Of a DNA stretch of 64,000 bases, positions 882 to 63,235 are shown piece by piece. The stretch lies in assembly GCA_965649765.1 (NCBI GenBank), contig OZ287751.1:96038001-96102000 (forward strand), given 5' to 3'. Each line of letters begins with the position of its first letter. Positions within the stretch are counted from its first letter, which is position 1. Made by a program: the position numbers and the translations under genes. This DNA is from Bispira polyomma (Eukaryota). The notes beneath the pieces were generated by a model that worked only from the letters and a program-made list of their open reading frames with translations, did not search any database and was not told where the DNA came from.

Positions 882-1779
882 CCCCCAAGGCATATATTCT
901 GTAATATCACGAATAGCATCTTCTAGAGGATTATCTGGATGTTCAAAGGCAGCCATCAGCATTGTGTGTAGCTTATCCAGCATCTTGTCAAAAAGCTTAT
1001 TTCCCCTGCAAAAAAAACAACAAAAAAAACCCCATCAATTTAACTAAATGCCTCTGCAATGGTGGTTATGTTCTCACCCCTGTCTATTGGTTTGTAAGAT
1101 TACACAAAACCAACAGAACCATTTTGTTCAGACTTGGTCAAGGACCAGTGCATGGGCCAAGGATGAGTTAGTAATTAAGTAGGAGTGGAGTGCTTATATC
1201 TGCCAAAACACAACAGGGCCAAAAACTGACAATAAATTTCGTCAGAAAAAACTACTGAACCGGATTTGACCTAAGGGATTAGGCCATGGGCCAAAGGCAC
1301 AGCAGGGCCAAATTTTTTACACCCTTTTGAAGGGCAGATGTCCGTGGTGGAGAATGTGGTCTACTAAAATTTAATTATTTCGTCCTTAGCCTATGTCCAA
1401 GCCATTGACAAAGTTGGTAGTAGAAATTTATACTGCTCCATACACTAAATATTATTACTAATACACTTTACATAATTGATATAATCTTTTGATCTTACAC
1501 TAGATAGGGTCTAAAGACAGGTTTCAAGAATACAACTGCTTTTTTCCCAGATCGCTCAACTAGAATATAGAACTTTGAGTTTCTCTTTACCGATTTCTAC
1601 TTCACCTCACCTTTTTTATGCCATCCTAAATAAATTTAAGGATGATACTGCCACTGCAAAGATGTAGATTTCTAATTAGTTAAATTCATCAACCATAATT
1701 TTTAATTTGTGACTGTTTTGTCGTGAAATATGGAAAAGTTTACCAAGGTAAGATGCCCATACATACTACAAATGTTTTT

Positions 1780-1812
<33 letters not shown>

Positions 1813-4800
1813 TACTTACCTGAGGATATTGACTACTTTCTCCACTAAGCTATCATAGTCTTTGTCACCCTCTGGGTCAGATTCTTTACCATGTTCTGTT
1901 ACACTATCTATGATCTCACCCAACAATGCTTCATGTTGCTGTCAAAAAAAAACATGATACCAAACTTCGGACCTATCAACAATGTAAGCAGCACTATGGC
2001 TCTGAAAACTATCTCTACATAGGAATTTTACCTAAGATCTTTCAGTGGTCAGTTGCAATGTGGTATACTCTCTCTGCATATCGAAATCAGTCGTTAAGTA
2101 ATTTTTAATGATAAATACTGGCATAATTAAAGGCTTTAGACAATACATTTTAAAGTCTTGGAATGTAAGACCATCATTAATACATGTTATGTGAAATAGT
2201 TTATCCTTCATTCACTCTAACTTTTTCATATAGTTACAAATACATTAAAATTGAACATAAATTTAGTGGGGCACACAAATCTAATGAACATATATAATAT
2301 AACACTTTACATTTTGTATGTATCAATTATAATATAACCCCTTAAATTTAACATTCACTGTAACTTGTTACCACAAAATATCATAGGTTAACTTTTAAAT
2401 ATAAATTTGTAAAGTGGTGGTTCCATATTCAAGTATGATGGGCAAAAATTGGTCAGATTTTGAGACCCGGTTGGTCAGGGTAAAAAATTAATAAAATTAA
2501 TTTTTGGAGCGGGAAAATGAAAAAGGGAGTCGACCTTCCAGATCGAACTGGTTGCGTCCCCTTTCGGCGGGACACCGATCACGATCGACCTTAAAGGTTT
2601 TACGTCATTAAACAAGGTGGCCAGACCTTACAGACCCGGGTAGGATCAAACTTATTGGAAATAGGATCTGACGTATCGCCCTACAATCAAATATATCAGT
2701 TTTATATATAAGTTTTTTATAGTGAGTTTAAAATATGCTTTCTTACGGTCATACTGCAACAGAGGTTTAAGAGGAATTGAACCCAAGACCACTCCCGGCC
2801 CATTGGGCTCCCACGGATAAGGTCCAGCTTTCACAAATGTCACCCCTACACTGGTTGAAGCCCTAGATCGGGCAATGAGAGGCCCTTGGATTTATACCTT
2901 AACTTAATTCCAGCCAGAGGAAGGGGATGGACCTGCATACAGGGACTTCTTTAGGTTGCCTCCAGATTTAATCGAGGAACTCAAAGAGAGGATTATACAT
3001 TATGTCACAAGAGTCACAACTTGGTACAGAAAGCCTTTTGGATGTGGGATTTAAACTGGCAGCTACCTTAAGGCACCTGGCCACGGGGTGAGTCACAGTT
3101 CACTGTCATACCGAGAAATCAACAATCACCAAGTTCATACCAGTGATCTATATATAAGGCCATTATCCAAGAATATGAGATGGAAAGTCTGACCTGCCCA
3201 ACTGCCCCTGTTGAGTTGAGAAAACTGGAAGAAGTCTACAAAAACAGATGGAACCACCCCCAATGCTGTGGGCTCCATTGACGGATAGCATGTGGCCATC
3301 AAGAAACCTCCCAAGGCTGGTAGTGAATTTTGTAACTACAAAGGGTTCTATTCGATTGGACTGGTTGATGGTGACTACAGATTTGTTTGGTTTGACATTG
3401 GCTACAGTGGTTCCTGTTCTGACGCTCAAATTTGTAACCATTCAGAACAAAAACAAAAGTTGGAAAAAGGATCCAGCGGGCTGCCCAGACCAGCACCACT
3501 GTTTGAAAGATGCAGAGGAGCTGTCAACTACTTACTACTGGGGAGTAGGATATGCATATCCAGGGGAAGAAGGTTGTCGAGAATGCCTTTCTAATATTGG
3601 TCAGCGGGTTTCATGTTTTACTGACAACCATGCATCACCATCCTTCAGTGGCATCAAAAAGTATTTAAACGTGTGTTATATTGCACAACATCCTAAGAAG
3701 CCGCTGTGGAAAGCCAGAACTGGAGCCTCCAAATCCTCAAGATGATCCACCTGAACCTGAGGAGCAGCTGGTGGGTAATCAATTGGCCAATGGCGAGGAA
3801 TGAAAAAAACAAAGGGACTACTTCAGGAATAAGGGGGGAGCTCCCGTGGCATAATGACAAAGTATAAGGTTTCACCTGAGCCTAACCACCTGAGCCTGAG
3901 CCTAACCACCTGAGCCTGATCAGAAGCATATCATTTTTCAAAACTTTTGTAATTTGTATGACCACTTGGTTGGGAACAGAACTGGGTTTAAACCCTAAAA
4001 GTGATGTGACCACTTGTTTAGAAGAGGAAAAATCTCAGGAAATGTTTTTTGGTCTATGAGAAACACTTTTATTGCACAACTGTCAAAATATGGGGTATAT
4101 ATAGAGTTTCTCATTTCTTTTTTTAAAATTATTTCTAAATCAAATTTTATTATTAAAAAAATTACTATGAAAATAGAGGCTTTTTGTTTTAATTTGGTAA
4201 TTATTTGGGCTTTTTATTTCTGCTACTGGAAATTAAGTGGCATTTAATTTTTATGTTTGAGTTTAAACTCTGGGACATTGATTTATAAGTTCTGTGTGTG
4301 ACACTTATTTTTAAGGGGACGGTGTAATGTCTTTGTTTGGCATTATATTTTGGGTTTTAAACTTTGGGCCACTGATATTTTTATTTCTTTCTGTTTGTGT
4401 GATTTTTTGGGGGGACGGTGTAATCGGTTTGTTTGGGGTTTTCAACATACAAGCTAAGATATTGTTCTTTGAAGATTCGGGTGGCTATAAAAAAGGTTGA
4501 AGGTTTTGATGAATGGCAGTCTGAAAAGGAGATTGCTGGCTGATTACTACGGTGGTGGTGGCTGTGGAGGTGGCTGTAACTGTGAAGCGGGTGCGATGTG
4601 GGGCTGTTGTTGTTGCTGGGTAAGCGTTTGATACTGCTGCTGCTGCTGCTGCTTATCGCCGAGTTGTTGAACGTTCACTGTGATAAGCTGTGATGGTTCG
4701 ACTGTTCCAAACTGCTGCTGATCGCACGCTGGTATTGAAATAAGTCCTGGGGTGGTGAGGATACTAATCTGCTCATATCCAAAGTCTTAGGGTATTTTCT

Positions 4801-7800
4801 GGTTGGTGCGCCTCAAAAATGTAGACTACAAAGAAGTATTGTGAGCCAATTCTGTTTACTGGGTGAAGGGCTAGTAAGCTTCACCTTTGTAGTACCCCTG
4901 TAACGTCATCCAAAACACAGAACGGAATGATGTGGAGGATGCTGAGGCTGCTGCTGGGGTATCTGCTGATGTAGCTGCTGTGTTACGTAGCTTGAAACGG
5001 GTGGTCTGGACGGGAATTGCTCTCACAAAAGCACTGCTACACATCTTACTTCTCACACGCTGTATCTTGCTGAGGGTTGCGAATCACTCATTGCGAAAGT
5101 TCTGGAAGTCGCCCTCTTCTAACTTTTCAGCTCCTGCTACCAGGTACTGAAAAAAGCCACCCGCTTTGACTGGGGCTTGTCTGGCTTCTGACTCTCTACC
5201 GCAAAGCTCAACATCATGGTCCTTATCTGTCCAAGGTGTTTCATCAGCTGGGAGCTGATAGCTGAGCCCTGACGGGATGGATAACTTCTCTGGATGGAGA
5301 ACTTCTCTGGATACTTGTATCTGTGGCACTGTCTCCACGAATACTGGAACACCTTGGTAAGTCATGTACCTCGGTGGGGAAGTTCCCTGTGTAGATGTGA
5401 CACATAATGCACTCTCTGGGAGCTCATAAATGAGAAGCCGTTGTGAAGGCAGTTCTCCCTGTCTGTGAAATCTGGTGCTCCTTGTCCTAATGTCTTGACC
5501 ATCAGCTTGCCACTCCTTCAAAAATCTGTCTTTAGCTGTTTATGCCGCTTGTTGTATATTTTTCTTATCACTGGATACACCTACTTCGAACTCCATCTGT
5601 GGCTCCTTGTCTGCCTCAATCGTTCTGTTCATCCTCTTTCGTCTCGGCATATTTATGTTGTCTATAGAAAAGCTTAAGCCTTAAAAATTTGCCTTACTCA
5701 AGACATACAATAATTAAAAAGAATAAAAATCCTCTTTGCTACCACAAACACAACACATATCACTAGCTAGCAATCTCCAAATACAGTGAGTCCTGCCCAT
5801 CCGGGATGCTTTTATAGCCAAATACCCCGACAAGCCCCATTACTATCCTATTAGTCAGGAGTAAATACATCACATCCTACTGGTTGTAAGTTTGATCGTA
5901 TTCCTCCCGTATCGTATCCTTTAGCTCGTCCGGCAGATCTGATAGTGAATACGCTCTGGCCAGTTTGATCGGGGTAAAAAACGTATCACCCAGAGGTTCT
6001 GACGGGGTGACAGTAAGTTCGATTGGGGTGCAATACGTCAGATTGGGATATGACTAAGTTACGTTCTGTCTGACCAAAAATGGGGGAATCCGAGTAAGAT
6101 AGAACAGGCCCATGCTAAGACCTGTCATACAGTATTGACAATACAATCTAACGTATTCACTGTAAGAGTTTTATATTCTGAATGACAGAAATAAGTACAA
6201 CTTTGCTACAATATAAAAAAGGGTTTTAAATGACAAGTTTTACCTTCCATTTGAATATTTTCCTGGCTTCCACTATGGCAACAGCAAAAACCAGCAAGTT
6301 TGGAGTTCCATTTCTAATGCATGCAAACAGGATGACCTTGAGTTCAGGTATGTCAGCCTCACTAAAAAGAAAAGACAAATTGTAGTGTATAATGATGTAT
6401 TCGCCAGCTAAATGAACATTTGTAAATTGATGTAAGTGACTTCCTGTTGTAAAAGCACACGCTAAGAACTAAAATAAAGTGCATTTTGATGTAGACTGTA
6501 TCTAAATCTACAGTAGAAGTATCTTTAAAACGTTTTTGGGGATTTTTGGCTTCAATGTTTATTTAATACAGTTGAACCTGTTCAAGTTGTAAACTAAGAG
6601 ACCCGTAGAACGACCTCTACTTAAGGGTACATTTTGATAAAAATTGCTTTTGTGGGACTACAAATAGTTTTCCACATAAAATGGTAATGGACTTAACAGA
6701 GTTTTACTTACAGGGGTTTGACTCTATAGGAATATTGGCAAGACATGTTTTGTTAGCACTGCATCTTTCACATAAAATAAGTACAATGTACTTACAGATA
6801 CACAAACACGTATACATTGTTATAAAATCCATTAGTTAAATATACTTTGAAAATCAATACTTTCTCATAACTGTGGCCATATTCACAAACATTCTTAAAA
6901 ATACAGTTCTTAAATAAATTTCTAAGCCTAAGCCAATCAGGTAACTTAAAACAATATGTTCAGCCAACCAAATTGGTTTAGAGAAAAAGTTGACGAGATG
7001 ATTATTTGTAAATATCAGCCTTGATCTTCCAGTCAGGTTAGCAATATAACAGATATGGGCTCAATGACGCTCATAGAGTCAGACCTAGAGATATTATTAT
7101 TATTATGATGCATTTTTAACATACTTTATTGATGCTAAACATCTTCTTAAGCGAAACAGCAGAATCAGTGATACAATTGTATGATCCAAGGACATAGCAA
7201 GGTCACAAGCAAAAAATTTGGGGTACACAGGACGGAAATTATGGTGGGAAGGCAAGGTTTTAAGCTTTTCCCTAAACCAGTAAGTGTGTCTGCTGATCTG
7301 GGGTCAACTGGGAGACTGTTCCATAACAAGGGAGTTGCAACGGAGAAAGCTCTGGATCCCGCCTTTGTGGTGGTTCTAACCGAAGAAACACCTCTTTAGG
7401 TTACTAAAAGAGAGAAGGGACGCGAAGTAGAAGGGCTGTTGAGTGACTAAAGCTTTGAATGTGGTAACGTGAGTTTTAAAATTCTATGATGAATAGGAAG
7501 CCAGTGTAGTTTTTTTAAGGTATAGTGTGACATCGGTGCGACAGCCCAAGTGAAAAATCTCTCTGCATCGGTAGTTATGGAGCATAAAATGTGAACATGA
7601 CTTGACATTCTTATTTACCTCGTTTACGTCATGTGTTTTCAACGTTTGTCGGGTGGTTTATGTGTTTGACACCAAGATTACACATCAACTAATAAACCAG
7701 TATAAATTAAATTTGGTAGAGGGATGGGCCAAAGAAGAATCCATTAATGACTTGTATGTGGAAGCAGGCTTGAGGGGCGGATCCAGCATTTGGTTTCACT

Positions 7801-9152
7801 ATTTTAAACTGTGGGGCTTTGGCGGAGGGATGCACCCTACTGAGTACTGTAGCATGACACATAAGTTAACGTGTTTAAATGTGTATCAAAATCTCTTGCC
7901 AGGTGTATCATTTTCAGTAATGGCAAACAAAATTTAATTGAAAGATTAGAAAGTGGTCTCTGCCCGACACCTTGCCTTATCAAGGGATAAATCATCTGGA
8001 GATTTCCTTTAGTGGAAGATCAACAACGAGGCTAAACAATGAGACTTTTAAGAGTAACATTAGAAAATTAAATTTTTAAAAATTTGTGAAATTGTTTTAA
8101 ATTTTCTTTTTGGCAAATTTAAGCCCGCGTAGCATTTAAGATATTAATAATTTTGATTTGATGTATTACATCAAAATGAAAGAAATACCTAGTAATTAAC
8201 ATCATTTTCTTTATTAAACACTAATTAGAGCCAAATTAGTTGTGATTAGTGGGGACATTAAGACACCAAAACAGTGCTCTTCTAGTTTTATTGTTTTTAT
8301 TATTTTCTTTTGTTTACAGTTTATGCCAAAAGGATTAAATTTAAACTAAAAGGGCTCCCTAGAAATATGTTCAGATATGATCCATTATACCATATTGGAG
8401 ACAGGGTCGTCATTTATAATGGTAATTCTATATAATGTGTTAGTGTTTGTCTGGCATTGATTTCCCACTATACTTTATCTCTATTCTAAATATTTGCTGA
8501 CAAATATAAGCCAAAGGATTGGTCAAATTTGTGGATCAACACTATATGCATGGAAAAAATTTACTCTGACGTAAATGGACTAGAAGTTAAGAATTTGCAT
8601 TCATAAAGTAAGAATAAGATAAAAATACGACTTTGTGTGGGAAAAGACTTTTATTCTATACCCAGTAAAATTATTCAACAAGCTGTATTTCTACACTGTG
8701 AAAACTCAAATTTGTTTTGCATAATTTTCTACTTTAACATACTTTGGCTTTGCACTGTAAAATAAATTAAAATTTTGTACAAAACCAATATTAAAACAAA
8801 ATTTTAAAATAATAGTACACATTATAAAATCCAAAAATAATATTTCTAGATCATAAAATATATACCCTTGCTTAACTAAACTACGGTCAACATCTACACA
8901 TATTACTGTAATTGATTTGGTAAATATAGCAAATACAAGTCACTATTCTCCAAAACTCCTTTAAATATCATCCACCCTCCCCTTTCTCACACTCAACAAC
9001 AATTTAGTAACATATTCTAATGGGATTTACCTTCCCTTTTTCAGTGCATCTTTAAAATCCTTCAGGCAATCTTCCTTAACTTTTTTACAAGTGCCGTAAT
9101 CCTTATCAACAGCCTCATTGATGGCCTCCACATATTCAGCAAACCGACCCAT
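882..9152 (-). CDS. Copy B (5' part, exons 1-4; the rest lies beyond the left edge): paralogue N-terminal helical region
   Basis: Exons 9031-9152 (MGRFAEYVEAINEAVDKDYG...), 6244-6361, 1820-1938, 882-1005. Phases match copy A exons 1-4, lengths are 122 vs 125/118/119/124, splice sites are canonical and the frame is open. Confidence 0.85.
2930..3720 (+). pseudogene. Harbinger (HARBI1-like DDE) transposase relic
   Basis: [48 protein letters not shown]...VDGDYRFVWFDIGYSGSCSDAQI and a RRxVENAF-like segment, with stops and frameshifts. Confidence 0.85.
4530..5660 (-). pseudogene. Harbinger partner (Myb/MADF-type accessory) ORF relic with a Q/P-rich tail
   Basis: ORF 5084-5521 ends in GGFFQYLVAGAEKLEEGDFQNFRNE, followed by T/A/S-rich and Q/P-rich coding-like sequence. 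It lies convergent to the nuclease. The assignment rests on position, since no Myb motif is visible. Confidence 0.5.
6874..7020. mobile_element. Short MITE
   Basis: GGCCATATTCACAAA ... TTTGTAAATATCAGCC inverted ends. A partial counterpart lies in copy A at ~40030-40090, and a related end TTTGTGAATACGGCCCC lies at ~46696-46712. Confidence 0.5.
7088..7560 (-). mobile_element. L2-group LINE 3' fragment with a (TAA)n tail
   Basis: Minus-strand LKKLHWLPIHHRI (~7480-7520) and AFSVATPLLWNSLP, with a tail at 7092-7106. Absent from the paralogous position in copy A. Confidence 0.7.
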
Positions 9153-9667
9153 CTTGTATAAGACCTTAGTATGTGTTATCTTACCACAATATATCTATCA
9201 AGAGCATCCAGTCATAAATAATACTCTCAGTACTTGCACTAATTGTGTGTCAATAAAAATGCTTTGTTTACCAGAACAAATGATGCATCCAAGTCTGGTA
9301 TTATTAATTTACCTAGTTACATGTGCATTAAATTTGACGTACATTCACTGTCATGCGATAAAGACATACTTGTATTTCAACAAAAACTGTAGAGATTTAT
9401 TAATATTTAATACTATTGCCCAATGCTTTAACTAAACCTTGATCATTGATAACTATTCCACTCTCCTGTTATTTAGCCTTCTCTTCCACACATACACAGG
9501 TTGGTTATATTACACTGTGTCCCCAATATTTATTTAGAATGTATTGATTATCTCCCACGTGCTTCTACAGTGTCAGCATAAATATCCAGCTCTTGTTTGG
9601 TTGGAAACCACAACAAAAGAGTATTTGTGGCCTATCCTTTTATAGGAGTACATGGAAAGACAAGTAT

Positions 9668-34900: not shown

Positions 34901-34936
<36 letters not shown>

Positions 34937-50160: not shown

Positions 50161-50222
<62 letters not shown>

Positions 50223-51478
50223 GTGAAACCTAGAAATTATAATGGCATCAAAAAGGAGACCACAAAAGAGGGGATGAAGACAGTGGAAGGGAACCAGAGC
50301 AGGAAGTAAATTAAAACATGGGGGAGGCAGCAGATGTGGTCATTTCAGAATCACATGTGCCTGAGAGGACACAGGATGAAGGGAAACAGGATGAAGGGAC
50401 CCAGGACCTAGAGACATAGGACACAGCTGGGGATAGTGAATTGGCTGGCTTCAACAGGAGACAGAAAAAGGGAAATTGTGAACAGTGCTACTAACAGATG
50501 ATCAAGAGGAGGCCGTGGTAGACTTCACTAGAACTTACTCAGAGACAGACATGGTGAAGGATAACTTTGACTTTCTCAGGCTACTTATTATCCACCATGA
50601 CTGGGTTAAAGCCAATACTACCATTGTCCCTTGGAACAGCTCCTCGTTCACCCACTTCCGTGGGATCACAGTCAGACAGTGACCATGGGGAAACAGAGAT
50701 GGAGTCTTCAATCCTCATGGGACGATTTATTGGTTGTCTGCCAGCCTTTCTAAGCAGTCATCAACCTGTGTCATGTCTACCCCTCACCCAGAAGTGACAC
50801 TTTCTGCAGGTCTAAGGAAGAATCTGGGTAGAATGGAGGATAGTATCTCTGGGTTTCTGAAGGAGGCCACCGGCAAGACCAAGACTGAGAGACCCAGGGG
50901 TGGCTTCATTAACTGGTTGTCTCTGAAAGCTGAGAAACTCTCAGATCAATACTTCCACTATTTTAGGAGGGATTTCTTCAACCTTGTTATAAACCTACAA
51001 GAGAGGACTTTACCAAAGCAACACTAACAGGCAGGGCAGTATGTTTACCAACAGTCCCCATCACAACTAATCCGAATGACAAAGCTAAGTGAGGGTATAT
51101 ATATTTTATTATATATGTGTATATAAAATATGTAATATTGTAAAGTATATATATATATATATATCTAACTACCATATATATTTACATCTCGTGATAAGAT
51201 TACACATTCAGTTTAAGTCTATAACACATTTAAATCTTCAAGTTAAGTTTGAACTTAACTTACATTAATCTTTAAATTGAACCGTCAAGTTAACTTGGCT
51301 CATATAATTCTTTAATTTACATTTTACATATTGACTTTAAGTTGACATCTAAAACCTCAAGCTAAGGTCACCTTACCGTAAGGTAAAACTTTTGACATTG
51401 AGTTTCCAAATTTTTGGGGTGACCCTAACTTGAGGGTCCAGTATGAAGTTAAGGTGACCTTAGCTTGGCATCAGGCTC
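49760..51478 (+). mobile_element. Harbinger-like derivative carrying a partner-ORF relic and subterminal palindromes
   Basis: ORF 50734-51027 contains RGGFINWLSLKAEKLSDQYFHYFRRD, similar to the 5084-5521 relic. Both ends carry clusters of TAAGGT(C/G)ACCTTA-like palindromes. Confidence 0.5.
50164..50216. repeat. (TA)n microsatellite
   Basis: Pure TA run. A (TA)n/(GATA)n run also lies at ~34904-34950. Confidence 0.95.
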
Positions 51479-51611
51479 TAATTTTACCTGTGCTTTTTAG
51501 GTATAGAAGTATACACAACCTCAAACCCAACAGTAGAAGTAGCCCACATCAGGTTGTAGCCAATATCTTCTGGAAAGTGGTAGCCACTTGTGAACCTTTT
51601 GAACTATCAGA

Positions 51612-52558
51612 TTAAATATAGGTCCAGACACAATCCGACGTCCAGGTGCCATGCTCTTTAATTTCCTGGATATGCACTTTTGCATTATATGCTAATGAGG
51701 CACCTGAACGCCGGAAGGAATGAAAAGTATAATAATTTGATGCAAAACCCATTTCTTGATTTAAGTTTGCCAAAACTTTTCTAACTCTAGTATCTGTGAC
51801 CATTATGCTACCCTTTGCAGTATGACATTGGAATAATGGTAAGTTGTTAGCTGGAGCATACAATCTAAATACTTCTTTCAGAGCCCGATAAGGGCAAATA
51901 AGGCTCTTGCCCAGACGTGGCAGAGTTAATAATTTAACTTGGTCCCTAGTTTGAATGGTTTTTGACCATTTAATTAAAATCTGCACCGAGTTCTTTTGAA
52001 AAAACACATCTCCACCCGTCAGATTAGGGTATGATCAAATTCCGCCACCGAATGTGGTGCAATATTAGAAAGTCTCAAAAAGCCGAAAAAACCTGTTAGA
52101 AATATGGCCCTAAACACTTGAAAATTGTCTACATGTTCACATGCCAAAATCAATTACTTAAGGGTGTTAACATCCATTATATTACGTTTTGTAACTGTGA
52201 TAGGTCTATTTATTTTTAAAGCTTTGATGAAGTATCTAATTTTTGGATGCTCCAATATTTCAAATTGCATGTTGTATAATACACACATAGCCTTTATGGC
52301 TGAGACATGATTGTTCACCATATGTAGAGGAACACCATTTACCACTAGATATTCTAGATATGAAATGACACAATCTACTGTAAAACTATCCAATCTAATT
52401 TTAAGACATATACAAAACCCAATGAAAGTCCTGAACAACATGGCATAGCACTTCTTTGTTTTGGGTCTGAAGGCTGTATGTGTCCTGAGGCAAGCTTTTT
52501 GTTTCAACCCCTGTAGGACTTTTGAATCTACAAAACAAAGCACAGTATCTAGAGCCAC
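51612..52558 (-). pseudogene. Tyrosine recombinase of the Ngaro-like element, disrupted by one stop and one frameshift
   Basis: N-terminal part is ORF 52154-52558. It continues past the stop to FFGFLRLSN (catalytic Arg, ~52065-52090), shifts frame near 52025, then reads KWSKT, CPYRAL and HSFRRSGAS...HGTWTSDCVWTYI. Confidence 0.85.
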
Positions 52559-52568
52559 CTGTTAACTT

Positions 52569-54089
52569 TTATACTTGCACATCAATATCTGTCATTCTTA
52601 TATTTGTCCTCATCCATATTGGACTATTTACTAATGAATGCAATTCACTGATGTCTTGACTGGAATTTTTCCACCTTGAGAGCAAGTCTGCCACCCTATT
52701 GTCTTTGCCCATGATATGGACGTACTGCATGTCAATGTCAGCCACAGCAGCTAACTGCCAAATATTTCTTGCGCAAGCTGTCAAAAATGGATCTCTAGCC
52801 CGACCAGACCTCAGCACGTTTACTACCGCCTGGTTATCACATTTCACTAGCACTTTTGTGCCTTTCCAGTAACTTTTATACAATTTCAACACGACTACTA
52901 TGTTGACCATCTCCAGATGGACTATGGTCAGATTTTTGAAGTTAAACGGTATAGCCAAATGGTAAACCAAATTTCTCCATCTACCACCAAGACTCACCAG
53001 GCAAGCATCTAATTCCAAAGTATAGTCGATAATTTTGTGTCCATACATTGAGACACCATTATACAGGGGCAGAAACTTTTGAAACCACCTCAGGTCTCTC
53101 CTAAAGTCTTCACTGAGTATAACTTTGTTAACATTGGTAATACCTCTAAGGATTTCCAGCATTCGGTTTAAAAATACCCTCACTGGTTTTACACATTTAT
53201 GTATGTACAATAATTGCCCTAGCAATGATTGTAATTGCTTTTTCGTGCAATGAGCCTTACTTTGCCATTCTTTGATTGTTTGCTTTATCTGATCCAGTTT
53301 TGGTTTAGGTATTGATACTGTACCTTCAATTGTATCCACTAGAATGCTCAAGCATACTGCCTGAGGACTAGGAATAACAGTTTTGTTTTTACTGATTGTC
53401 AAACCTAATTTTTCCATAACTTCATATAGACAATTAAAAGACTTTTCTGCTACGCTAGGCATACCGAACCCTAGAAAATCGTCGATATAGTTGATGATGC
53501 CATATCCGTTGCGTCGCATGACGTGACGCACAGCGTCGCTTATGCACTGAAAAAATTGTCTGCTGCCAAATGGCAAGCATGTATCGATATATGATCCTTT
53601 CCAATTCAAACCAAGTAAATCATAGTCTAACGGATCGATTTTCAAATGTCTGAATGCTCTACTGATGTCCAGTTTATATATGTGGGCACCTTTGCCCAAT
53701 TTTGTAAGCTCATTTGTAAGGTCATCTATAGTAGGGAAGCTGAGATTGAACTCAGCACCCATATAGCTATTTTTATCTACTCCAGCGTTGACCGATAGAC
53801 CTTTAGGCCAGCTAAGGTCAATGATGACCCTTCTGTTAATCGAATCCGGCTTATGACGCGTCATGAATGGTGAGGAATGCCAATTAGCAATGGGATTTTT
53901 TTCAAATGGGCCAATAATGGTCCCATGTTTACTTTCTTCAGCAATGTACACATCCACATCTTTTGGATAATCTGACGTCAATTTATGATTGTCCTTGTCA
54001 CTATTCAACTTACAATGTCTATTAAAACCTAAAGGGAAACCAAACTGTATTAACTCAAAAAGTTGTTGGTCCCAATAGCCATCTAACAT
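52569..54089 (-). CDS. Reverse transcriptase / RNase H of the Ngaro-like element
   Basis: 506-aa ORF with RRVIIDLS, KLDISRAFR, LPFG and YIDDF, followed by RNase H motifs DAC, LEMVN, CDNQAVV and NRVADLLSR. Confidence 0.9.
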   Translation of the reverse strand: MLDGYWDQQLFELIQFGFPLGFNRHCKLNSDKDNHKLTSDYPKDVDVYIAEESKHGTIIGPFEKNPIANWHSSPFMTRHKPDSINRRVIIDLSWPKGLSVNAGVDKNSYMGAEFNLSFPTIDDLTNELTKLGKGAHIYKLDISRAFRHLKIDPLDYDLLGLNWKGSYIDTCLPFGSRQFFQCISDAVRHVMRRNGYGIINYIDDFLGFGMPSVAEKSFNCLYEVMEKLGLTISKNKTVIPSPQAVCLSILVDTIEGTVSIPKPKLDQIKQTIKEWQSKAHCTKKQLQSLLGQLLYIHKCVKPVRVFLNRMLEILRGITNVNKVILSEDFRRDLRWFQKFLPLYNGVSMYGHKIIDYTLELDACLVSLGGRWRNLVYHLAIPFNFKNLTIVHLEMVNIVVVLKLYKSYWKGTKVLVKCDNQAVVNVLRSGRARDPFLTACARNIWQLAAVADIDMQYVHIMGKDNRVADLLSRWKNSSQDISELHSLVNSPIWMRTNIRMTDIDVQV

Positions 54090-54320
54090 TGTTTTCCACT
54101 GGCTTATGTTTAGTTGAGAGTGTAGAGAAATGAAATGCGTGCATCTAAAAAATTAGGTTGACCAAATTGCTTAACTGCTGTATGCAGTGCTATCGGACAT
54201 TCTATATGCGATTGTACATTTTCTTTATTTGGCAATAACGGTTCAGTCAATGGCACAAAGCCGAATGAGAAATCAGATTGTTCCTGCCATCTGGCAAAAC
54301 TTTTACAATCAGATTGAATT

Positions 54321-55630
54321 TTACAATATTAAACTTTCAATATCAGCCTTCCTACAGCCAGAATTATACACATAACGACTTACACGTCTACTTATGTCTT
54401 GCTGAGAGGCTTTCTCTTTCTCACTCTGTTTGATACTTTGGCCTACATAGCCTGCACTATAACCAGTAATATTTTTACAAACACTAAAACTTTTAAAACA
54501 TCTGTCTTTACAATACTTTACACCTGGATCACTAGTGTAGCTGCCATCCTGGTGTATACGTGGGAGACAGCTACTTAATCGTTTTTTGGCTGTACCTTTT
54601 TTTGTGAAGAGACAATCTTTTTCTGGATGCCCTAAGATTCTACCTAAAGTCACACAATGGGAGCAAATATGCCTATGAAGTTTTCCATTTACCTCGTGAT
54701 CTTTTTGCTGCTGGCAAGTGCCATTTTGGAAAAATTTACAAAACCATGGCTTTTTTGGATTCTGACTCTCTTTTCCCTTTGCGCATGCACCCATCTTATT
54801 CTGCCAATTCTATTTGTATCATACCAATCGAGGGTGCCCCTTTCCATTTCGCATAATAATACTGTATGTGCAGCCTTAGCGCCTTGCCAGCTGAAATCCG
54901 TAGCGTCCTCCATTAAGTCTGATAAATAGCTCAACATTGTTTCGCGCTTTTTCTCATCTTTTTCATCTAACATATTTTTACTGAAACCTTGCATCCATGG
55001 AGACATGGACAACTGGTCATAAGAAAGACGTGTTCTATTGTTACCACCTAGAATGGCCTCATGAGGCCACGCTACTTTATGTTTTACAACTACATCAATT
55101 GCCCCTCCCCTTTTTGACTTTATTTTACCTGCACATTTAATACCTGAGCTATGACTGCACTGCTGCAATTCTCTCACCCTAGTATCGATTTGTCGCTAAA
55201 TACTGGCTGAAGTTCTAAGAGAAGCCAAACTTGGGAGGATTTGTTCGTCATCTGACGACTCACTATTACTGTCAGACTGTATTTTGGTTTTACTACTAAT
55301 AGTGTCATTCATTTCATGATTATACCGAGTACTTAACTTTTGTCCTTTTTTCTTTCTACTTTTTCCTGTTCCAGCTTCGGCCACTCTGTCTTCAACGACA
55401 TCCAGTCTCGAGTTGACTCTCTTCAGTTCCTGCAGGATCTGTAGCTGCACATCAGGCTGTCCTGCTACCGCTCTCGGTCCAGATCCGTCCTCCACAGCCG
55501 TCATCGTCCGTGAATCTTGTACGTTATCCGTTAACATTCCAGTCCCGATTTCATTCAAAAAAGCACATTTTTTCCCTGTTGGTGGAATGTGTTTCTCACC
55601 ACATTTACTGCAATTAGCCTTTTTAGGCAT
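54321..55630 (-). pseudogene. Gag-like ORF1 of the Ngaro-like element, interrupted
   Basis: Three consecutive ORF pieces: 55196-55630, 54689-55177 and 54321-54794. N-terminal CSKCGEKH..PTGKKC and a C-terminal Cys/His finger CKFFQNGTC...HRHICSHC, located upstream of RT. Confidence 0.7.
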
Positions 55631-57276
55631 TTTATTAAGTCAACGTCTCTGAAAAATTACACAAAAACAGCCCTGAGCGCTCTGTTTTGATCACTTCACA
55701 GCCTAGCTTTTTTAGAACCCCATAAATTGCAAGAATGTACAATAAGTTTAGACCGTCCCTTAAACGCGACCACTTAAGGTCAAGCCAAGCATGAGGTCGT
55801 CAAAAGAGAGCTACAGCAGGCACACAGTCGATCACTATTCTCCTTTATAGAAGTCCAATTCTCGTGACTCCAGTATGTTCAATTAAATGACCGTCTGTTT
55901 AAAATATAACATGTATAAAATCCAACTAAAATAATGTATAGTAAAATAAAATCATTTTGTAAACACAAGCAAAATAAAACCAGATTGAATTCAAATTGTT
56001 TTTTAATGTCACTCTGTCAGTGACTAAATTCAAACTGACCATATATTTTCACTGAAATGACTTGTTTATTGACTTAACCAATCAGCATGCTTGTAAACAA
56101 CTTTCCTTAACAACAGGGGGGGATGTTTACTTACTTAACTTTTTACCTGTTAAATGGTCTGGTGCCCTACATAACTTAATTAAGGTTGTGCAGGACTGAC
56201 ATGTTCCGTGCCTAGACATTGTACCCGACAGCCACACATATTTCATCAAGGTTACTACTGGATTGATGGTAATCTCACTTACGACCAGACAGAGTAGTGT
56301 AATCCGAATGGAGTGGGTTCTAACAAACATACTATCTTAATTGATGACATCACTTTTTATTTTCAATTTTACCACAGATAACCAATGAAACATATGTCAG
56401 AAAAAATAAGAGCTATTATAGAAACAAGATTTAATAAGTGATATATACTCAGTTTTACATTAGTAGAATAGGCTATATCTGGTGGTAGTTTATATATATA
56501 TATATTGTACACACTAGAGCATATACTTAGTATTCGCATTTTTATCTGTTTTTTTTTTCAATATATTTATTGCTAATAAATATTCATTTGATATAGCACG
56601 GTTATAAACACCACTGTTATCTAATGTGCTTTGAAATTATTACCCCAGTCTGAGTTCTTCCACTTGTGAACCAATTGTTCAGACTCAGCTCCCTGTGGAA
56701 GCATACTAGCCATGCTCCAACAACGGCACACAAAGATTAATTCAGGGTGATTCAGGGACTTTTAAAACAATGAAATATTTTAGTGTCAGGCAATTCACAA
56801 AAGTCATTTTTGTTCAATGTAGACAAAATGTTAGACAAAGTAATTGTAAAATACTTCATTAAAAATCCATCAGTTACTGTTATTAGCATGTCAAACAAAA
56901 TGATATTATAGCAATCATAACCAAAGTCCCAAAATGGTCTAGGAGAAATGTAACATTATTTATATAAAGGAAAAAGAAACATGTTAATTTCAGAGTTAAA
57001 ACATTACATCAAGATTGTCTCATGTGAGTATGTGAAAAAAAACATGGAGATCAGTGGTTAAATAATGCTTTGTTGCTGAGGTAGTGCAGCTGAAAGATTT
57101 GTTAATAATAATAAATAACTAATACTAGTGTGGCTTCACTGAAACACTGTAATATAAAATGGAACTATATAAAATCCATGTATAAACATTAGACAACAAT
57201 GTTATCACAGACATCTTTGTAGTACTTCTATCTCTCTTGTTTATACTGCTGACATAAAGCGCATAATAAAGGACCC

Positions 57277-58044
57277 TCATAACATGCAACATGAGGAGGA
57301 TTTCTTTGGCTGATGCTGTGGCTCCTCATCATTTCTTGGTGTATTAACTTTTGTTTTTATGGCTTGTTCTTCCTTTTGTTGCTGAGATGCGTTATTAACC
57401 ACTGGGGCGACATCTTGTCCCTTCTTCACTTCATTAACTTTTGTTCTGTTGGTTTGTGCTGCCTTTTGTGGTTGAGATTTGTTATCAACCATGGGGGCTG
57501 CTTTTCCCTTTTTCTCTTTATTCTTGCCCACACTAGTAGTAGCTGTTTGATGTTTCTTTGCAGCTTCTGCACTTTCTCCCCTCATTATAGGTTTAGAACA
57601 GTCTTCTATTTGTGGTATATAAGCATGTATCTTTGCCTTTAGTTTGTCCAGCTGCGGGCAGTCCCAAGTATTTTGGATACTAACATCTGGACTATGGAAA
57701 TTGATATAAAGCAGTTGTGTAAATACCATACTCATGGGACCTTCCGGGGGCCATGTCATCTTCTCTAGAAGAAGAGGTATTACTGGTTTCTTTAGAGCAT
57801 CAGCCAGACTGACTTCTCTTCTACAATTAGCTGACATGGCATACTTGGAAGTTACACAGGTCAGTACTACCTTGCAGCCACGGACTCCTTTATCTATCTT
57901 ATCATACAGGGAATCTCCCCCTCCCATTTGCAGGATATCTAACCAGCAGGTATAGCCTAACTGACTAAGTCTGTTGTAGAGGGCTTTGATCTGAGGCTGC
58001 TTTCCCCACTGGTAAGATATGAAGATATCAGGAGATTCTTCATC
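57277..58044 (-). CDS. Terminal exon of copy C: second TIR domain, charged tail and CCaX motif
   Basis: Same 768-nt exon as in copy A. The TIR is nearly identical, the tail is diverged, and it ends in KKSSSCCML*. Confidence 0.92.
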   Translation of the reverse strand, partial: DEESPDIFISYQWGKQPQIKALYNRLSQLGYTCWLDILQMGGGDSLYDKIDKGVRGCKVVLTCVTSKYAMSANCRREVSLADALKKPVIPLLLEKMTWPPEGPMSMVFTQLLYINFHSPDVSIQNTWDCPQLDKLKAKIHAYIPQIEDCSKPIMRGESAEAAKKHQTATTSVGKNKEKKGKAAPMVDNKSQPQKAAQTNRTKVNEVKKGQDVAPVVNNASQQQKEEQAIKTKVNTPRNDEEPQHQPKKSSSCCML

Positions 58045-61000
58045 CTAAATAATTATAGAAGCACAGTGCCAATATATGTGAAGATGCTATTTGTATCAAT
58101 TGTCAGTTTTTTTTTATTATCGATATGCAGTTAAGGCAAAAAATAAAGAAACATAGACTTTTATGAGGCAAGAGTGATGTAGTAATTTACAGTATCATAT
58201 TGGACTCCTCTTACCTCTGATTCGGTATGTGTCGCCTTGACTACAGCTTTCCCACTGTCATTTTTCTCCTTGGGCTTGATAATAATGATTTCAGCTGGTG
58301 GAGACATCCAGTCGATGTATGCTACAACAAACATTACAGTAACTTACAGCTCATATTTTGACTAAAGTCCAGGATTGAAACCTAGATTTAAGTTGAACCT
58401 CTATTATTCTGGTTCTTGATCAAGGTGGGACTTACATAGGTTATAGTAGTTTGATGATATGTACATATATATGAGTTGAAAGAACCTCCAAAGTTTACAT
58501 TTGACAGAAGGGGTTCTCAATGTTTCGTTTTTGCATTTTTCTGTTAAAATATGAATAATAATAATGATTTTCTGACATTAAGTTAGTAATTATAAAATGT
58601 AATGTTTAGCAAGGTTGAACTACTTCTATAATTCCCAAATCAAATACATGTAATAAACTCTATAATGTGCAGTCAACATACTGCTCTAAACTACTATTTA
58701 CGTTCTTTGAAGAGTTGCTCATTTGGTACCACATTGTACCGTATCTGCATTAGTAACTCTTGCATCTTCGGCAGTGGCCAGTATCTGTCGTCCCGACTCT
58801 CTTCCCCACCCCGAGAAAAGAAACGTATGAACAGGTACTCTCCAAAGATAGGGCCCATGGAACCTTTGGGTGGCCAAGGCATCTTCTCCATCAACAAAGG
58901 AATAATGGGTTTGCCAAGATTCACAGACAGATTCACCTAAAATGTAATACAAACAAATCACAACAAGTAAATATAGCAGTATTTTTCAAACTTTAATAAT
59001 TAGTGCATGCAAATGTAAACATACATGTTGCATTTTGCGTAATCATAGTTTTACCAAGATTGAATGACAGATTCACAAGGTATGGAACAAAGCAAAACAC
59101 AAGTGAATATACAGCATGTGTATCAACCTGTGATGTTTCATATGTTATTTCTACAGTTGCCTTATCTCAACTATAGCACAGGCCTCAGACCAATATAAAA
59201 TAGTAGTATTGAAATGTTAGGCAAAAGCCTCATTTTCAGTACTGTCTGTTATTGAAGCCGTATATGTCCTATAAGCAACATATATTTAATTTTGTAATAA
59301 AACAGCTGTTCTATTCCACAGTGGTCTGTTTACAGTTTATACAATTAAAACTTTGTGTAATATTATAACATCGAAGTTTGTGAGATAGATTTTCCAACAT
59401 GAAGCTCTTGTGTCATCAATTCTGATTGATTTTAAAGTATGGTAAAAGCTATTACCAGTTTGTTTTCTCAACAATATCTTGATGCACAGTCAAATCGTTC
59501 CTTAATGTGATTTAATGTTAAACACAACTATATTGAGGCAATACTTTTAATATATCATGTTATAATCAGGATATCTCATTCCACCATGGATACACAGGCA
59601 TTAAACCTCTTTTAGACCAAAAAACCAAAAGTTTGCCTTAACGGTCCTGTGTCCCCTGGTAAAATTGTCAAAAAAACCAGGGTGTGTCATGGAATATTAT
59701 TTGAACAAAATTAAACATGGGAGGAATCTCTCTTCTGTCCTGGGAGACTTTAAATATGTTTTTCTTTCAGTTAACATTTCTCATCTGGGCAAATTTTTAC
59801 CTTGTTATGTCTGTATGGCATTACAACATCTTATCACTGTTACATCACGTTTTCAGAAATGTAAAAATATACATAGGGTTTTCTTTATTTCCATTAGTTT
59901 GGTTTAGAGTTATAACTTTACCTCTCTGTTGCAATTAGGTGACTTGGCATACTTTTCAGACACACAGCAAATAATCACTTTGGCACCACGGATACCTCTG
60001 TCTATCTTTTCAAAGAGTTTATCACCTCCTCCCATCTGACCAATATCTATCCACCTAGTGATTGAAAAACAATTATAATCTGATATATGTATATATATAT
60101 AAATATATATAAAAAAATATTAATGGGGAATTGAGAATTTTTGATTATGTAATCCACCCTAAAAACATGCCAAAAGGCTGGCTAGGTAATTTCTTAATAG
60201 AGCCAATATTGATTAAATCTGGTTCACTTTTCTTTGGCATATATAATATGCAAAAACACCCATGTACCTTTAAATTAAACAATAAGACAACTGACCTTCT
60301 GCAGTAAGTATATCAAAACTTACCCTTCAAAACCGGCCATTTCCAGGTGGGTTTTAAGCAGTTTGACTTCCTCCTGTAGACCCCACTGGTAACTGATGAA
60401 CACTGGGGGAGGAGTGGTGTACTCAACCTCCTCCTCTTCTACCACACCCTCTGGAAGATCAAATACGGGAGAGATGTTACCTTACTTTGCAGAATCCACA
60501 CATGGGATATTCACCAGCAAATGTAGCTCAGGGAGCTAAATCTTTATCAACATTTGTTTGATAAATGTCTGGGTGAATCAAATGGGAAGACTTCAATCAT
60601 ATAACAATCACTGACTTGGGAGTTAAAGGGCTCATCGACTAATGGTGTATTTTTATAAACTTTCCATGAATTCGAAAGACCTCTCTTTTAGTTTGTTGTT
60701 TATATGCCATTCATGTTTACATTTATATTTATATGTAACTATACTCATCTATGAAAATGTTCAACATAAAACTCCTTGTAAACTTACATGTACAACTTAC
60801 ATCTACAAATTACCAAAGGATTCTTTTCAGAATCATGTTTTCCTTTATTACTGCAGAGGTTATGTAATAGTGTGTCTTTATAATGTATCACAATACTAAA
60901 AAATTAAACACTGTTCATATACCATTTGCCTTATAAAATAAATAAATTTATATATCTCGAGGTAGGGATATTTTTGTGAGTCATACCCCGTCATATTTCA

Positions 61001-63235
61001 TAAATATTCAATAGCATTTTATTTGCAGATTATGTCCAATTCAACATCCAAGGCATACGTATAATGTTGCAAAAGTACTATACAGGAGCAAGTGATGTTC
61101 CTGTGTGTACACAAGCTTTAACATCCCTTACCTGTTTGTTTCAGAGCATTTTCCACAATAACAAATGCATCCATTCTATCCATTTCTTCTAGATGTTTTA
61201 AAATGGAGTGTGTTGCTTCTCTTGTTTTGTTAGATGCAAACCACTCATCAAACATGCTTAGGCATGGATCTGGTTGAGTTGCCCAGTTTCTGATGTCATC
61301 ATTGCTGTAACCCAGTCTGCTGGCTAGTAGTCGCCAGTCGTGGTCAGATTGTCGATTCAGAAGCTTTGAAACATCTCGTGACCAGATTGGAGCATGGCTC
61401 AGTGTCTATATTTAAATTATATTATTGCAGTTTTACAAGTAATTGCACTATGTTGTTTGTAAACACAATATTCTTTTCAACCGAGAGTTAAAAAATATTA
61501 TTGTAGCTTTACAAGTAATTTGTTGTCTTGTTTGTCAATATTTGTTTCATCTGTTCATTTCCTATCTGAATCTATTGATAAATTATAGATATTTCAGCAA
61601 TAATGCTCAAGTGCATCATTTAGTTCAATACATCATTTCCCTATATTAAGTAAATGGAAGTAAAATAATACAAAATGGAAATAGAAAAAAAAAATAACCA
61701 ATTAGGCTTAATTGATATCAATACCACTACAATAAATCACTAAGTTTGTTTTACTTCCTTACCTTTTTGTCAATTTCTTCAACCTTTATTACTGTCTCTT
61801 CAACATCATCTTCTAGTTCTTCCAGACGCTGACCTTGATCATTCACTTCCCCAGACAAGGCCACTATTTCAGCCTTGGTGTTGTCCACGTCTTTTCCCAA
61901 GTTAGTCACATTTTCCTCTGTATTGGTAACTCTGTCATCCAATTCTGCCACATCCTGTTGTACTTCATCAACTTCATTAGTCACTGCAGCCAGACTATCA
62001 GCACAAAAAAAAAACAATTTTGTAAACAAACTTTCACTAAATCGTAGTTTTTCGGTTTTATGGTACCCAATGTTTGAAGTCATTTAGTGGGAACACAACA
62101 ATGGGCGTACCTGAATTATTAGGTGATGAAGACAGCTGGGTGGGTAAAGCTGACAAGGTAATCTTAGACATAGTATTGTCTCCTTGATGATACAATGAAA
62201 CTGTATGGGTTAATTATTCACAGCCTGGACAGATTTAACAGCATTTGTGAGGTACAAGACCAATTTAATATTTGACTAGATTACAGTAGATATAATTGAG
62301 GTTTATGAATGTCACTATCTTGCGTAGGGCTGTGGCAAGAGTTCAAACAAATCATATCTCTGGCAGAGACATAACAATGACCAAAAACCACATGTGTATT
62401 TCTGTCTATAACATCCAGTGAAAATATTATTTAGAAATGTGAAACTAATATATTCATGTATGACAAAAAATATGTGTGTGAGATAGCTATAGTTTGAAAT
62501 AGTATTTTTCGGATCAAAATTTAGTTAGCTTTAAATGTTAGACATTTAGTATGAACTGATAACCTAAATACCCCTTCCTGTAAACATGGCGGAAAACAAA
62601 AGTGCAGCAAATTGCTTCATTTGAAAATTAAACTATATAAAATGACATAAAAATGTCAAAATATTTTATTATTTGTAGTTAGGAAAGGTATTTGTTTAAT
62701 ATTAATACATCACCCAACAATTTAGATATTGGCACTTCTGTCCAGATTTGATCAATATTTCAATATTAATGTACAATACCATACCTAGTGTGAGAAGATG
62801 AACTGGTTATGTTAGTCAGCTTTTAGATTATATATTTGTAATTCACATTACAGATATACACACACCGATTATTCACAATTTTTGGCATTGAACATATTGT
62901 TGCCTTTCTGGTTCCTACAAAAGGCATTTGTCTGTGTGTTGTCTATATGTAAATACCTTAGATTCTTAAGATATCGTCAAAGATATTTGAATACAGTAAG
63001 TATATTTGAAGTTTTACTACCTTCTTCCTGCAATGGTATCTAGAGCGGACACAGCAAAGTCCTTCAGCACTGGATTCTTCTTAATTTTTTCAAAGAACTT
63101 TTTATACTTTGCCAGCTCCTCTGGGTATATCGCACCAATAGTCTTCATAGTGTAAACCAAGCCAATCATATTCGTTGAAGAGTCACACGTATCAATGACT
63201 GTCTTTAACACTGCCAAGTACTTGGCTGTTTTCTT
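57277..63235 (-). CDS. Copy C (3' part, exons 10-17; 5' exons lie beyond the right edge): paralogue with coiled coil, Death domain, TIR, TIR and CCaX
   Basis: Exons 63021-63235, 61763-61994, 61132-61405, 60324-60450, 59922-60054, 58702-58936, 58215-58321, 57277-58044. Lengths match copy A (215/232/274/127/133/235/107 vs 104/768). The frame is open and ends in KKSSSCCML*. Confidence 0.88.
61132..61405 (-). CDS. Death-domain exon of copy C
   Basis: Same 274-nt exon as in copy A, with 8 of 91 residues different by manual count. Confidence 0.85.

Follow-up and report, generated by a model that had tools for sequence, protein, structure and literature searches.

A tandem cluster of ten genes in Bispira polyomma, arranged head-to-tail on one strand over 509 kb, encodes proteins composed of an ARM/HEAT solenoid, a coiled coil, a Death domain and two TIR domains; with about even odds (a probability near 0.5) these are lipid-anchored, SARM1-like immune sensor-enzymes. 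Three of the genes, A, B and C, lie wholly or partly in the window, the stretch of 64,000 nucleotides that was analyzed. By its domain content the cluster is a member of the published invertebrate family ecTIR-DC 6. Since this family is already described and its relatives in other species often carry adjoining locus tags, which suggests tandem copies in many of them, the array itself is ordinary and would alone amount to a routine lineage-specific expansion. The locus displays in one place the variation of the family, namely a constant signaling half beside an ARM half that changes, a clear-cut fusion gene and relatives lacking TIRs.

Gene structure and organization of the cluster

The first-pass annotation had proposed at least three intact paralogues whose exons keep phase, splice sites and frame. 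This was borne out, as A, B and C are complete, with 17 exons each, an identical string of intron phases and no internal stop, and encode proteins of 1139, 1108 and 1140 aa, respectively (Table 1). In copy A the coding sequence comprises 3420 nt, the sole stop codon is terminal and GT-AG borders occur at all 16 introns. Exons 5-17 of B were found, as predicted, to the left of the window (reaching window position -15,881) and exons 1-9 of C to the right (reaching 75,851), and the truncation or frameshift of B or C outside the window that had been named as counter-evidence was not encountered. Paralogy is far beyond chance, since dS across 17 exons is 0.26 for A-B and 0.39 for A-C; the corresponding dN/dS values of 0.27 (95% CI 0.21-0.34) and 0.34 (0.28-0.42) denote purifying selection, in agreement with the earlier claim for each copy. 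Contigs of the sequencing runs are identical to copy A letter for letter; the three runs are DNA-like, with introns covered and no spliced joints among those listed.

The array had been stated to continue past both window edges, which it does as the ten-gene cluster. Frames are open in all ten genes, nine of which share 17 exons, the same phases, absence of internal stops, both TIR glutamates and a cysteine at position -4. The distances of 36,050 bp between the starts of A and B (45202 and 9152) and of 36,345 bp between the stops of C and A (57277 and 20932) were reproduced. A regular period of about 36 kb was rejected: from the start of C to that of A it is 30,649 bp, and the nine distances between successive starts (95,211; 20,937; 26,853; 59,632; 30,649; 36,050; 56,802; 90,306 and 70,948 bp) range from 21 to 95 kb. 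We infer that the cluster grew by unequal crossing-over.

No additional copies turned up in the 40-kb flanks to the left and right of the 600-kb region. The TIR matches C12 and C3 (48-58% identical) were set aside as other genes; the 30 kb around each contain nothing that matches ARM and, at the most, a weak match of Death-like type. A longer N-terminus, as in the 1450-aa mollusc forms, was searched over 600 kb with a profile of 110 proteins (the 10 cluster copies plus 100 relatives above 1000 aa) and only two small fragments appeared beyond the known exons, in what is a weak test because it also failed to pick up the first exons of K1 and K10, which are divergent and were then chosen by eye from ORF lists, based on length, phase and weak likeness.

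The statement that introns were altered by different transposons holds for A intron 1, with a reverse transcriptase remnant that is not in the gene product, and for B intron 2, with a DDE_Tnp_4 element which we take to be Harbinger/PIF-like. The retroelement in the spacer between C and A, presumably DIRS-like, carries at its ends an inverted repeat of 32 nt. No Pfam match was obtained for four ORFs between B and K8, three of them viral-like and one unidentified. The cluster region is repeat-rich.

Table 1. Features of the window (positions are those of the 64,000-nt stretch).
Feature	Position	Strand	Description
Copy A (K6)	20932..45202	-	Complete, ATG to stop, 17 exons, 1139 aa
Copy A exons 1-5, ARM/HEAT	45202-45078, 39968-39851, 37895-37777, 37110-36987, 36243-36110	-	Fold based on model of a homologue
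Copy A exons 6-10, ARM/HEAT	34090-33937, 32867-32669, 32280-32135, 30438-30226, 29699-29485	-	Fold based on model of a homologue
Copy A exon 11, coiled coil	28665..28896	-	Coiled-coil-type Pfam matches in homologues, sub-cut-off; matching P0101 region modeled as parallel homo-oligomer
Copy A exon 12, Death domain	28097..28370	-	PF00531, E 5.5e-11
Copy A exons 13-15, TIR1	23287..27908 (27908-27782, 27575-27443, 23521-23287)	-	Glutamate E771 in S-x-N-C-x-x-E motif
Copy A exon 16, linker	21941-21838	-	
Copy A exon 17	21699-20932	-	TIR2, tail and CaaX-type motif
Copy A TIR2 (within exon 17)	21250..21699	-	PF13676, E 6.7e-23; glutamate E961; model pLDDT 90; TIR fold, Z 14-17
Copy A CaaX-type motif, C-terminus	20932..20949	-	Lysines and serines ahead; likewise in B and C
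Copy B (K7), exons 1-4	882..9152 (9152-9031, 6361-6244, 1938-1820, 1005-882)	-	Whole protein 1108 aa
Copy C (K5), exons 10-17	57277..63235	-	Whole protein 1140 aa
Copy C exons 10-14	63235-63021, 61994-61763, 61405-61132, 60450-60324, 60054-59922	-	
Copy C exons 15-17	58936-58702, 58321-58215, 58044-57277	-	
LINE-type reverse transcriptase remnant, broken, A intron 1	42732..44341	+	RVT_1, E 2.7e-4, sub-cut-off
DNA transposon, broken, B intron 2	2466..6043		DDE_Tnp_4 PF13359, E 6e-6; imperfect inverted repeats
Tyrosine-recombinase retroelement, spacer from C stop to A start	51149..56505	-	RVT_1 (5e-8), RVT_3, Phage_int_SAM and integrase matches

Protein architecture and relatives

The suggestion of an immune-type family was supported as to predicted domains, since Death and TIR_2 were both found. 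Two TIR_2 stretches occur in each of the eight homologues scanned, and exons 13-15 of A match the homologue TIR1 at 64-81%. In the model of a homologue, residues 1-555 are predicted to be all-helical (pLDDT mostly above 90) and match ARM/HEAT proteins, and no transmembrane helix is seen; no nucleotide-binding or LRR domain appeared among the Pfam matches. Relatives were found in molluscs, annelids, echinoderms, hemichordates and lancelets, 41 of 120 matching the first 500 aa of A at E<=1e-3. In a tree they mostly cluster by genus, which points to repeated lineage-specific expansions.

C-terminal motif and coiled coil

All nine full-length copies and 106 of 120 relatives carry a cysteine at -4, against a background of 0.2%. 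Among these 106 relatives, 85 end in Leu and 100 in L, I or V, and 85 have at least two K/R just upstream; a cysteine four residues from the end followed mostly by aliphatic residues denotes a putative CaaX box.

When the coiled coil-Death piece of the sea-urchin homologue P0101 was modeled in three copies, a number chosen by the analyst, the score was 0.82 (best control 0.50), and the coiled-coil region is predicted as a parallel homo-oligomer, with runs agreeing in at least 84% of contacts and pLDDT of at least 81. Of microbial proteins solved as pairs, 21 of 30 attained that mark, as did none of 23 single chains, 7 of 16 pairs in animals and one of seven eukaryotic pairs lacking an older solved relative. 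Coiled coils may attain it because the model has memorized them.

TIR domains: enzymes or adaptors

The NADase-type glutamate is present in both TIRs of the nine full-length copies and of 117 of 120 relatives. The PDB sequences nearest to TIR2 are those of AbTir, of a bacterial TIR protein and of SARM1, with whose glutamate that of TIR2 aligns in a marginal match (E 0.008). SARM1 is also the top Foldseek match of the modeled full-length homologue, which reflects domain content and not one superposition, as TM is 0.13-0.25 and rmsd about 28 A. The TIR2 model lies at an rmsd of 2.4 A over 128 residues from the SARM1 TIR.

A different and rather doubtful possibility is that the proteins are non-enzymatic, MyD88-like adaptors, whose membrane-tethered TIRs bind Toll-like receptors once these are activated, the Death domain recruiting IRAK-type kinases. 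MyD88 likewise combines Death with TIR, and the ecTIR-DC 6 architecture was read in this way in the accessible part of PMC6836662 and in PMC9334734; Aplysia LOC101850562 and LOC101855561, listed under MyD88 there, are among the relatives found here (P0038, P0057). The fold also counts in its favor, since non-enzymatic TIRs fit the TIR2 model as well as SARM1 does (Z 15.8 for SARM1, 15.7 for MyD88, 15.8 for IL-18R). Against adaptors, Pfam places these TIRs in TIR_2, PF01582 being weak, and MyD88 is absent among the eight PDB sequence matches of TIR2, the neighbors being NADase TIRs. The glutamate kept in both TIRs is, according to the accessible text of PMC7075850, rare (<10%) in MyD88 TIRs. 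Nor would a fixed adaptor explain why the ARM region evolves fast and is swapped.

Evolution of the ARM and signaling halves

Among six core copies, mean dN/dS is 0.39 (0.33-0.46) for ARM exons 1-8, 0.23 for the coiled coil, 0.10 for Death, 0.11 for TIR1 and 0.10 for TIR2; dS falls from 0.55 (CI 0.48-0.63) in the 5' half to 0.32 (CI 0.27-0.37) in the 3' half. Recombination probably evens the signaling half and moves ARM modules between copies. Judged from its exon sequences, K8 is a chimera whose ARM exons come from a TIR-less gene and whose signaling half is B-like: informative sites are K9-like versus B-like at 395 to 53 in exons 1-8 and at 16 to 369 in exons 9-12. The junction falls in intron 8; contigs from all three DNA runs, which may derive from the assembled individual, cross it with no mismatch. 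The gene order B-K8-K9 is the outcome expected of unequal crossing-over.

K9, the tenth cluster gene, is intact, with 13 exons and 758 aa, and has no TIR exons. Two intact TIR-less genes exist, both under purifying selection, and the last exon of K9 has three copies in the genome; it found no match among 86 candidates from other species, which is a weak indication as to this class elsewhere. Between K9 and its C5 relative, dN/dS is 0.33 (0.21-0.52) in exons 7-12 and 0.98 (0.63-1.61) in exons 1-6, and between K8 and K9 it is 1.35-1.42 in exons 1-6, with CIs that include 1. As no multi-exon region tested, the ARM region included, reached a dN/dS significantly above 1, the ARM data are accounted for just as well by relaxed constraint.

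These values bear on another reading, an unlikely one, in which these SARM1-like proteins would sense not pathogens but a signal of endogenous origin (metabolite, damage, development), the copies being kept by dosage or tissue specialization while the ARM region tolerates change. In its favor, every ARM dN/dS interval lies below 1 or includes it, and SARM1, the closest architecture, mediates neuronal death after injury (PMC7075850, accessible part). Against it, the relatives group by genus, whereas SARM1 is typically one gene per genome according to the same part of that source, and an ecTIR-DC 6 member is enriched in the symbiont-bearing gills of a clam (PMC6836662, as far as accessible). An assembly artefact (duplicated haplotypes) or decaying pseudogenes, for which only the abundance of repeats speaks, are effectively refuted by copies that differ by dS 0.26-0.40 and in intron contents, by open frames in all ten genes, by dN/dS far below 1, and by run contigs identical in every letter to copy A and to the K8 junction.

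Proposed mechanism

In the preferred reading of membrane-held sensor-enzymes, the CaaX cysteine would be geranylgeranylated, holding the protein at the membrane, and the coiled coil would pre-oligomerize it. The ARM solenoid would bind a ligand and restrain the TIR pair; upon release, the TIRs would assemble and cleave NAD+, leading to cell death or a signal, while the Death domain might recruit downstream Death-fold proteins. TIR-less relatives could act as decoys or sensor-only partners and also as donors of ARM modules. As a tentative extension, ecTIR-DC 6 could represent overlooked intracellular immune receptors of invertebrates, that is, prenylated, oligomeric double-TIR NADases with ARM sensors diversified by rapid substitution and exon-block exchange and with TIR-less decoys or sensors, an animal counterpart of plant TIR-NLR clusters on a SARM1-like plan.

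According to the accessible text of a 2020 survey (PMC7075850), NADase activity was known among animal TIRs for SARM1 alone, and many animal TIR clades are unstudied according to a 2026 preprint (10.64898/2026.04.30.722052). If the TIRs described here cleave NAD+ at the membrane, a widespread invertebrate family would join the short list of animal NADase TIRs. The chimera K8 and its parents offer a natural swap for asking what the ARM region senses.

Comparison with known systems

Family 6 of the ecTIR-DC proteins was defined by Gerdol et al. (2017; doi 10.1016/j.dci.2017.01.014), cited here through the accessible part of PMC6836662. Copy A shares with it the long ARM-like N-terminus, the central Death domain and the two TIRs, and the homologue model likewise has no transmembrane helix; the ARM region differs in being about 510 aa, as in deuterostome forms, versus some 850 aa in the majority of bivalve and gastropod matches. 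The accessible part of PMC6836662 makes no mention of a CaaX end, catalytic-type glutamates, chimeras or TIR-less paralogues for this family, some of which the original description may cover, and no paper was found in a literature search on TIR domain, CaaX and death domain in invertebrates.

The proteins have in common with SARM1/TIR-1 an ARM solenoid that precedes a TIR bearing the same glutamate. They were rejected as orthologues of SARM1: between ARM and TIR no SAM domains occur (none at E<=0.05 in eight of eight full-length homologues), coiled coil and Death being in that place, and there are two TIRs, a C-terminal CaaX motif and ten copies versus one. With MyD88 they share a Death domain followed by TIR, whereas the MyD88 plan comprises a Death domain at the N-terminus and one TIR without the glutamate; in A, the Death domain starts at residue 594, after about 590 extra residues, and two TIR_2-type domains keep the glutamate.

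Plant TIR-NLR clusters are tandem and combine variable sensor with conserved signaling domains. The present cluster resembles them by analogy in its tandem order, variable sensor and conserved signaling half, although it belongs to an unrelated family in which no nucleotide-binding or LRR domain was found. In anti-Lepore hemoglobin genes the fusion is located between its two parent genes; in an unrelated family, the position of K8 between B and K9 may be seen as analogous.

Genomic organization of the cluster

The array in Bispira polyomma is real, larger than the first-pass annotation had reported and irregular in its spacing. When the window (C4:96,038,001-96,102,000) was compared with itself, collinear matches appeared 32.5-36.4 kb apart, and translated comparison identified these as minus-strand exons. 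Copy A comprises 17 exons encoding 1139 aa, the terminal stop codon being the only one. The A and B start codons are 36,050 bp apart and the C and A stop codons 36,345 bp, exactly as given in that annotation, and gene models built from fetched flanks bear out its view that B and C are intact, both being complete beyond the window edges. The array also continues past both edges, as had been proposed: when the rest of 95.78-96.38 Mb of the contig (C4; genome size, 1.04 Gb) was fetched and all copies were modelled, ten genes on one strand were found over 509 kb (K1 to K10, with C, A and B as K5, K6 and K7). The suggested period of ~36 kb was a local coincidence, since start-to-start spacing in the cluster is 21-95 kb.

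Nine of the ten genes have 17 exons with a common phase string, no internal stops and products of 1107-1269 aa, and their non-GT donors are GC only; exon 1 of K1 and of K10, which was picked by eye, is less certain than the other exons. A Death exon query of the genome gave at least 12 matches, at least 10 of them in the cluster and at least two elsewhere, and a flank search found no additional copy within 40 kb on each side of the cluster region. Other TIR_2 genes and the elements interspersed in the cluster are included in the table. ORFs like those of the tyrosine-recombinase retroelement also occur elsewhere in the cluster, and the stop-region variant of the run contigs may originate in the doubled tail of K8 or in another copy. 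The P450 frame covers almost the entire cytochrome P450 model (E 2.5e-111) and is possibly an intronless gene or a retrocopy. Four ORFs of the single-exon group were scanned with no Pfam match; by eye, the group resembles a Maverick/Polinton-type element.

Coordinates of the array, its TIR-less relatives and accompanying elements (C1, C3, C5 and C12 are other sequences of the same genome)
Feature	Location	Remarks
Cluster K1-K10	C4:96,316,484 to 95,807,318	one strand
Copy A	window 45202 to 20932 (-)	17 exons
K9, TIR-less ARM-Death paralogue, intact	C4:95,838,032-95,900,044	758 aa
Second TIR-less ARM-Death paralogue, intact	C5:2,453,271-2,487,873	763 aa
Third TIR-less ARM-Death paralogue	C1 about 95.217-95.24 Mb	apparent frameshifts in two exons
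Leftover second C-terminal tail	C4:95,930,718-95,930,813	own CaaX motif; directly behind K8 stop
TIR_2 gene	C12:47,602,835-47,603,272	48-58% to family TIR (both TIR_2 genes); R replaces motif cysteine
TIR_2 gene	C3:2,215,926-2,218,752	weak Death-like match upstream
Tyrosine-recombinase retroelement	window 51149-56505	terminal inverted repeats; between C and A
Minisatellite	window 40575-41516	unit ~63 bp; A intron 1
Stop-region variant	window 20820-20998	run contigs X1, X2 repeat part of the stop-codon region, back 179 bases
Single-exon ORF group	C4:96,005,000-96,017,000	between B and K8
Cytochrome P450 frame	C4:96,234,825-96,236,378 (-)	518 aa, one open frame; between K1 and K2
NAD-dependent epimerase/3-beta-HSD-like frame	C4:96,133,933-96,134,721 (+)	between K4 and C; opposite strand

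Selection, probable homogenization and mosaic genes

Selection on the copies, already proposed from their open frames, is evident in whole-gene dN/dS values of 0.27-0.34 for A, B and C (Nei-Gojobori, codon bootstrap; the pairs are non-independent). Among six core copies, dN/dS is 0.39 in ARM exons 1-8 and 0.10-0.11 in the Death, TIR1 and TIR2 domains. Synonymous divergence is 0.55 in exons 1-10 vs 0.32 in exons 11-15 plus 17; the two intervals are separate, a pattern that homogenization of the 3' half by recombination would produce.

K8 is a fusion gene, K9-type in exons 1-8 and B/A-type from exon 9 onward: informative sites for K9 vs B number 395:53 in exons 1-8 and 16:369 in exons 9-12, and the fusion is also seen in trees. 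The switch lies at about C4 95,947,600-95,947,615 in intron 8, where K8 and K9 have a GC donor in common, and the junction is crossed without mismatch by contigs from all three DNA runs, which may derive from the assembled individual. K8 is located between B and K9, a prediction of unequal crossing-over; its exons 1-6 are nearer the C5 TIR-less copy than K9, so the donor history is more complex than a single event. A weaker mosaic, of K3 and C, is seen in K4 (informative sites 134:58 vs 66:139). Within the last exon of K8 there is a duplication, and the tail of this gene resembles that of K2.

TIR-less relatives

In K9 the ARM region is retained, the coiled-coil exon is altered and the Death domain is divergent (Pfam E 4e-8); its last exon, as delimited by conservation across three copies, would encode 88 aa without TIR or CaaX. 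Between K9 and the C5 copy, dN/dS is 0.33 (0.21-0.52) in exons 7-12, indicating maintenance of the TIR-less form. In exons 1-6 it is 0.98 (0.63-1.61), so that the distal ARM changes at a nearly neutral rate while its frames stay open; positive selection on this region is plausible. All three TIR-less paralogues end in E-S-F-V, a sequence similar to class I PDZ-binding motifs.

Protein architecture and predicted function

Pfam places a Death domain in exon 12 of copy A and a TIR_2 domain at the beginning of exon 17; Death and two TIR_2 stretches occur in all eight full-length relatives scanned. The structure was modelled on a sea-urchin relative (P0101, alignment including 98 others) in place of the spliced B. 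polyomma protein. In the model, a helical solenoid predicted with confidence covers residues 1-555; long helices, the Death bundle and the two TIRs come after it. Foldseek ranked SARM1 first and ARM/HEAT proteins next, with low TM-scores. Modelled as three copies, the P0101 coiled coil-Death piece (residues 560-718) reached a score of 0.82, against 0.50 for the best control; the interface is a parallel heptad one, contact agreement between runs was at least 84% and pLDDT at least 81. The oligomer mark was reached by 21/30 microbial pairs, 7/16 animal pairs, 0/23 single chains and one of seven eukaryotic pairs for which no relative had been solved earlier. The modelling supports self-association of this homologue, copy number apart.

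Cysteine occupies position -4 in all nine full-length cluster copies and in 106 of the best 120 of 268 relatives, vs 0.2% Cys across the preceding 100 residues; 85 of those 106 have Leu as the last residue. A CaaX-type end finishing in Leu points to geranylgeranylation, which would be the predicted modification here. The glutamate aligned with the catalytic one of SARM1 is kept in both TIRs of 9/9 copies and of 117 of the same 120 relatives.

The likeliest working model, with a probability of about 0.5, is a sensor-NADase of the SARM1 type, lipid-anchored and oligomeric. The array shows the gene structure, the domains, selection and mosaicism; lipidation, catalysis, ligand sensing, expression and an immune role are predicted properties. 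A MyD88-like adaptor is less probable. Aplysia members, two of them among the relatives found here, are classed as MyD88-like in PMC9334734. According to PMC7075850, NADase activity requires the TIR glutamate, which MyD88 seldom has, but the residue is found in >70% of TIRs and does not always track activity. The fold is compatible with either, as the TIR2 model (from the window, pLDDT 90) matches the TIRs of Hydra TRR-2, SPARTA, SARM1, IL-18R and MyD88 at Z 15-17, and such matches do not separate enzyme from scaffold; by sequence, TIR2 had eight PDB matches, to AbTir, another bacterial TIR and SARM1. A sensor acting outside immunity is unlikely, somewhat more so than the adaptor.

Relatives and known families

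The best 120 of the 268 relatives retrieved with TIR2 belong to molluscs, annelids, echinoderms, hemichordates and lancelets, and almost all are annotated as uncharacterized. Adjacent locus tags are common among the relatives listed, e.g., in Haliotis rufescens, Ruditapes, Mytilus californianus, Pecten, Dimorphilus and Branchiostoma, from which tandem copies in these genera are inferred. In a Death-TIR-TIR tree of 109 sequences (nine copies and 100 relatives >1000 aa; K9 omitted), the nine copies form a single clade (support 0.885) that falls with the lophotrochozoan sequences but not within the bivalve-gastropod clade; the expansion is therefore lineage-specific, with other genera having their own. 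A literature search found no paper that treats TIR and death domains together with a CaaX motif in invertebrates; the supplementary gene lists of several studies may bear on prior description (PMC4346834; PMC7075850; PMC8662601; PMC11103948; PMC4892480; 10.64898/2026.04.30.722052). The array adds a further instance to a family already known (ecTIR-DC 6; PMC6836662), within which tandem expansion seems to be common.
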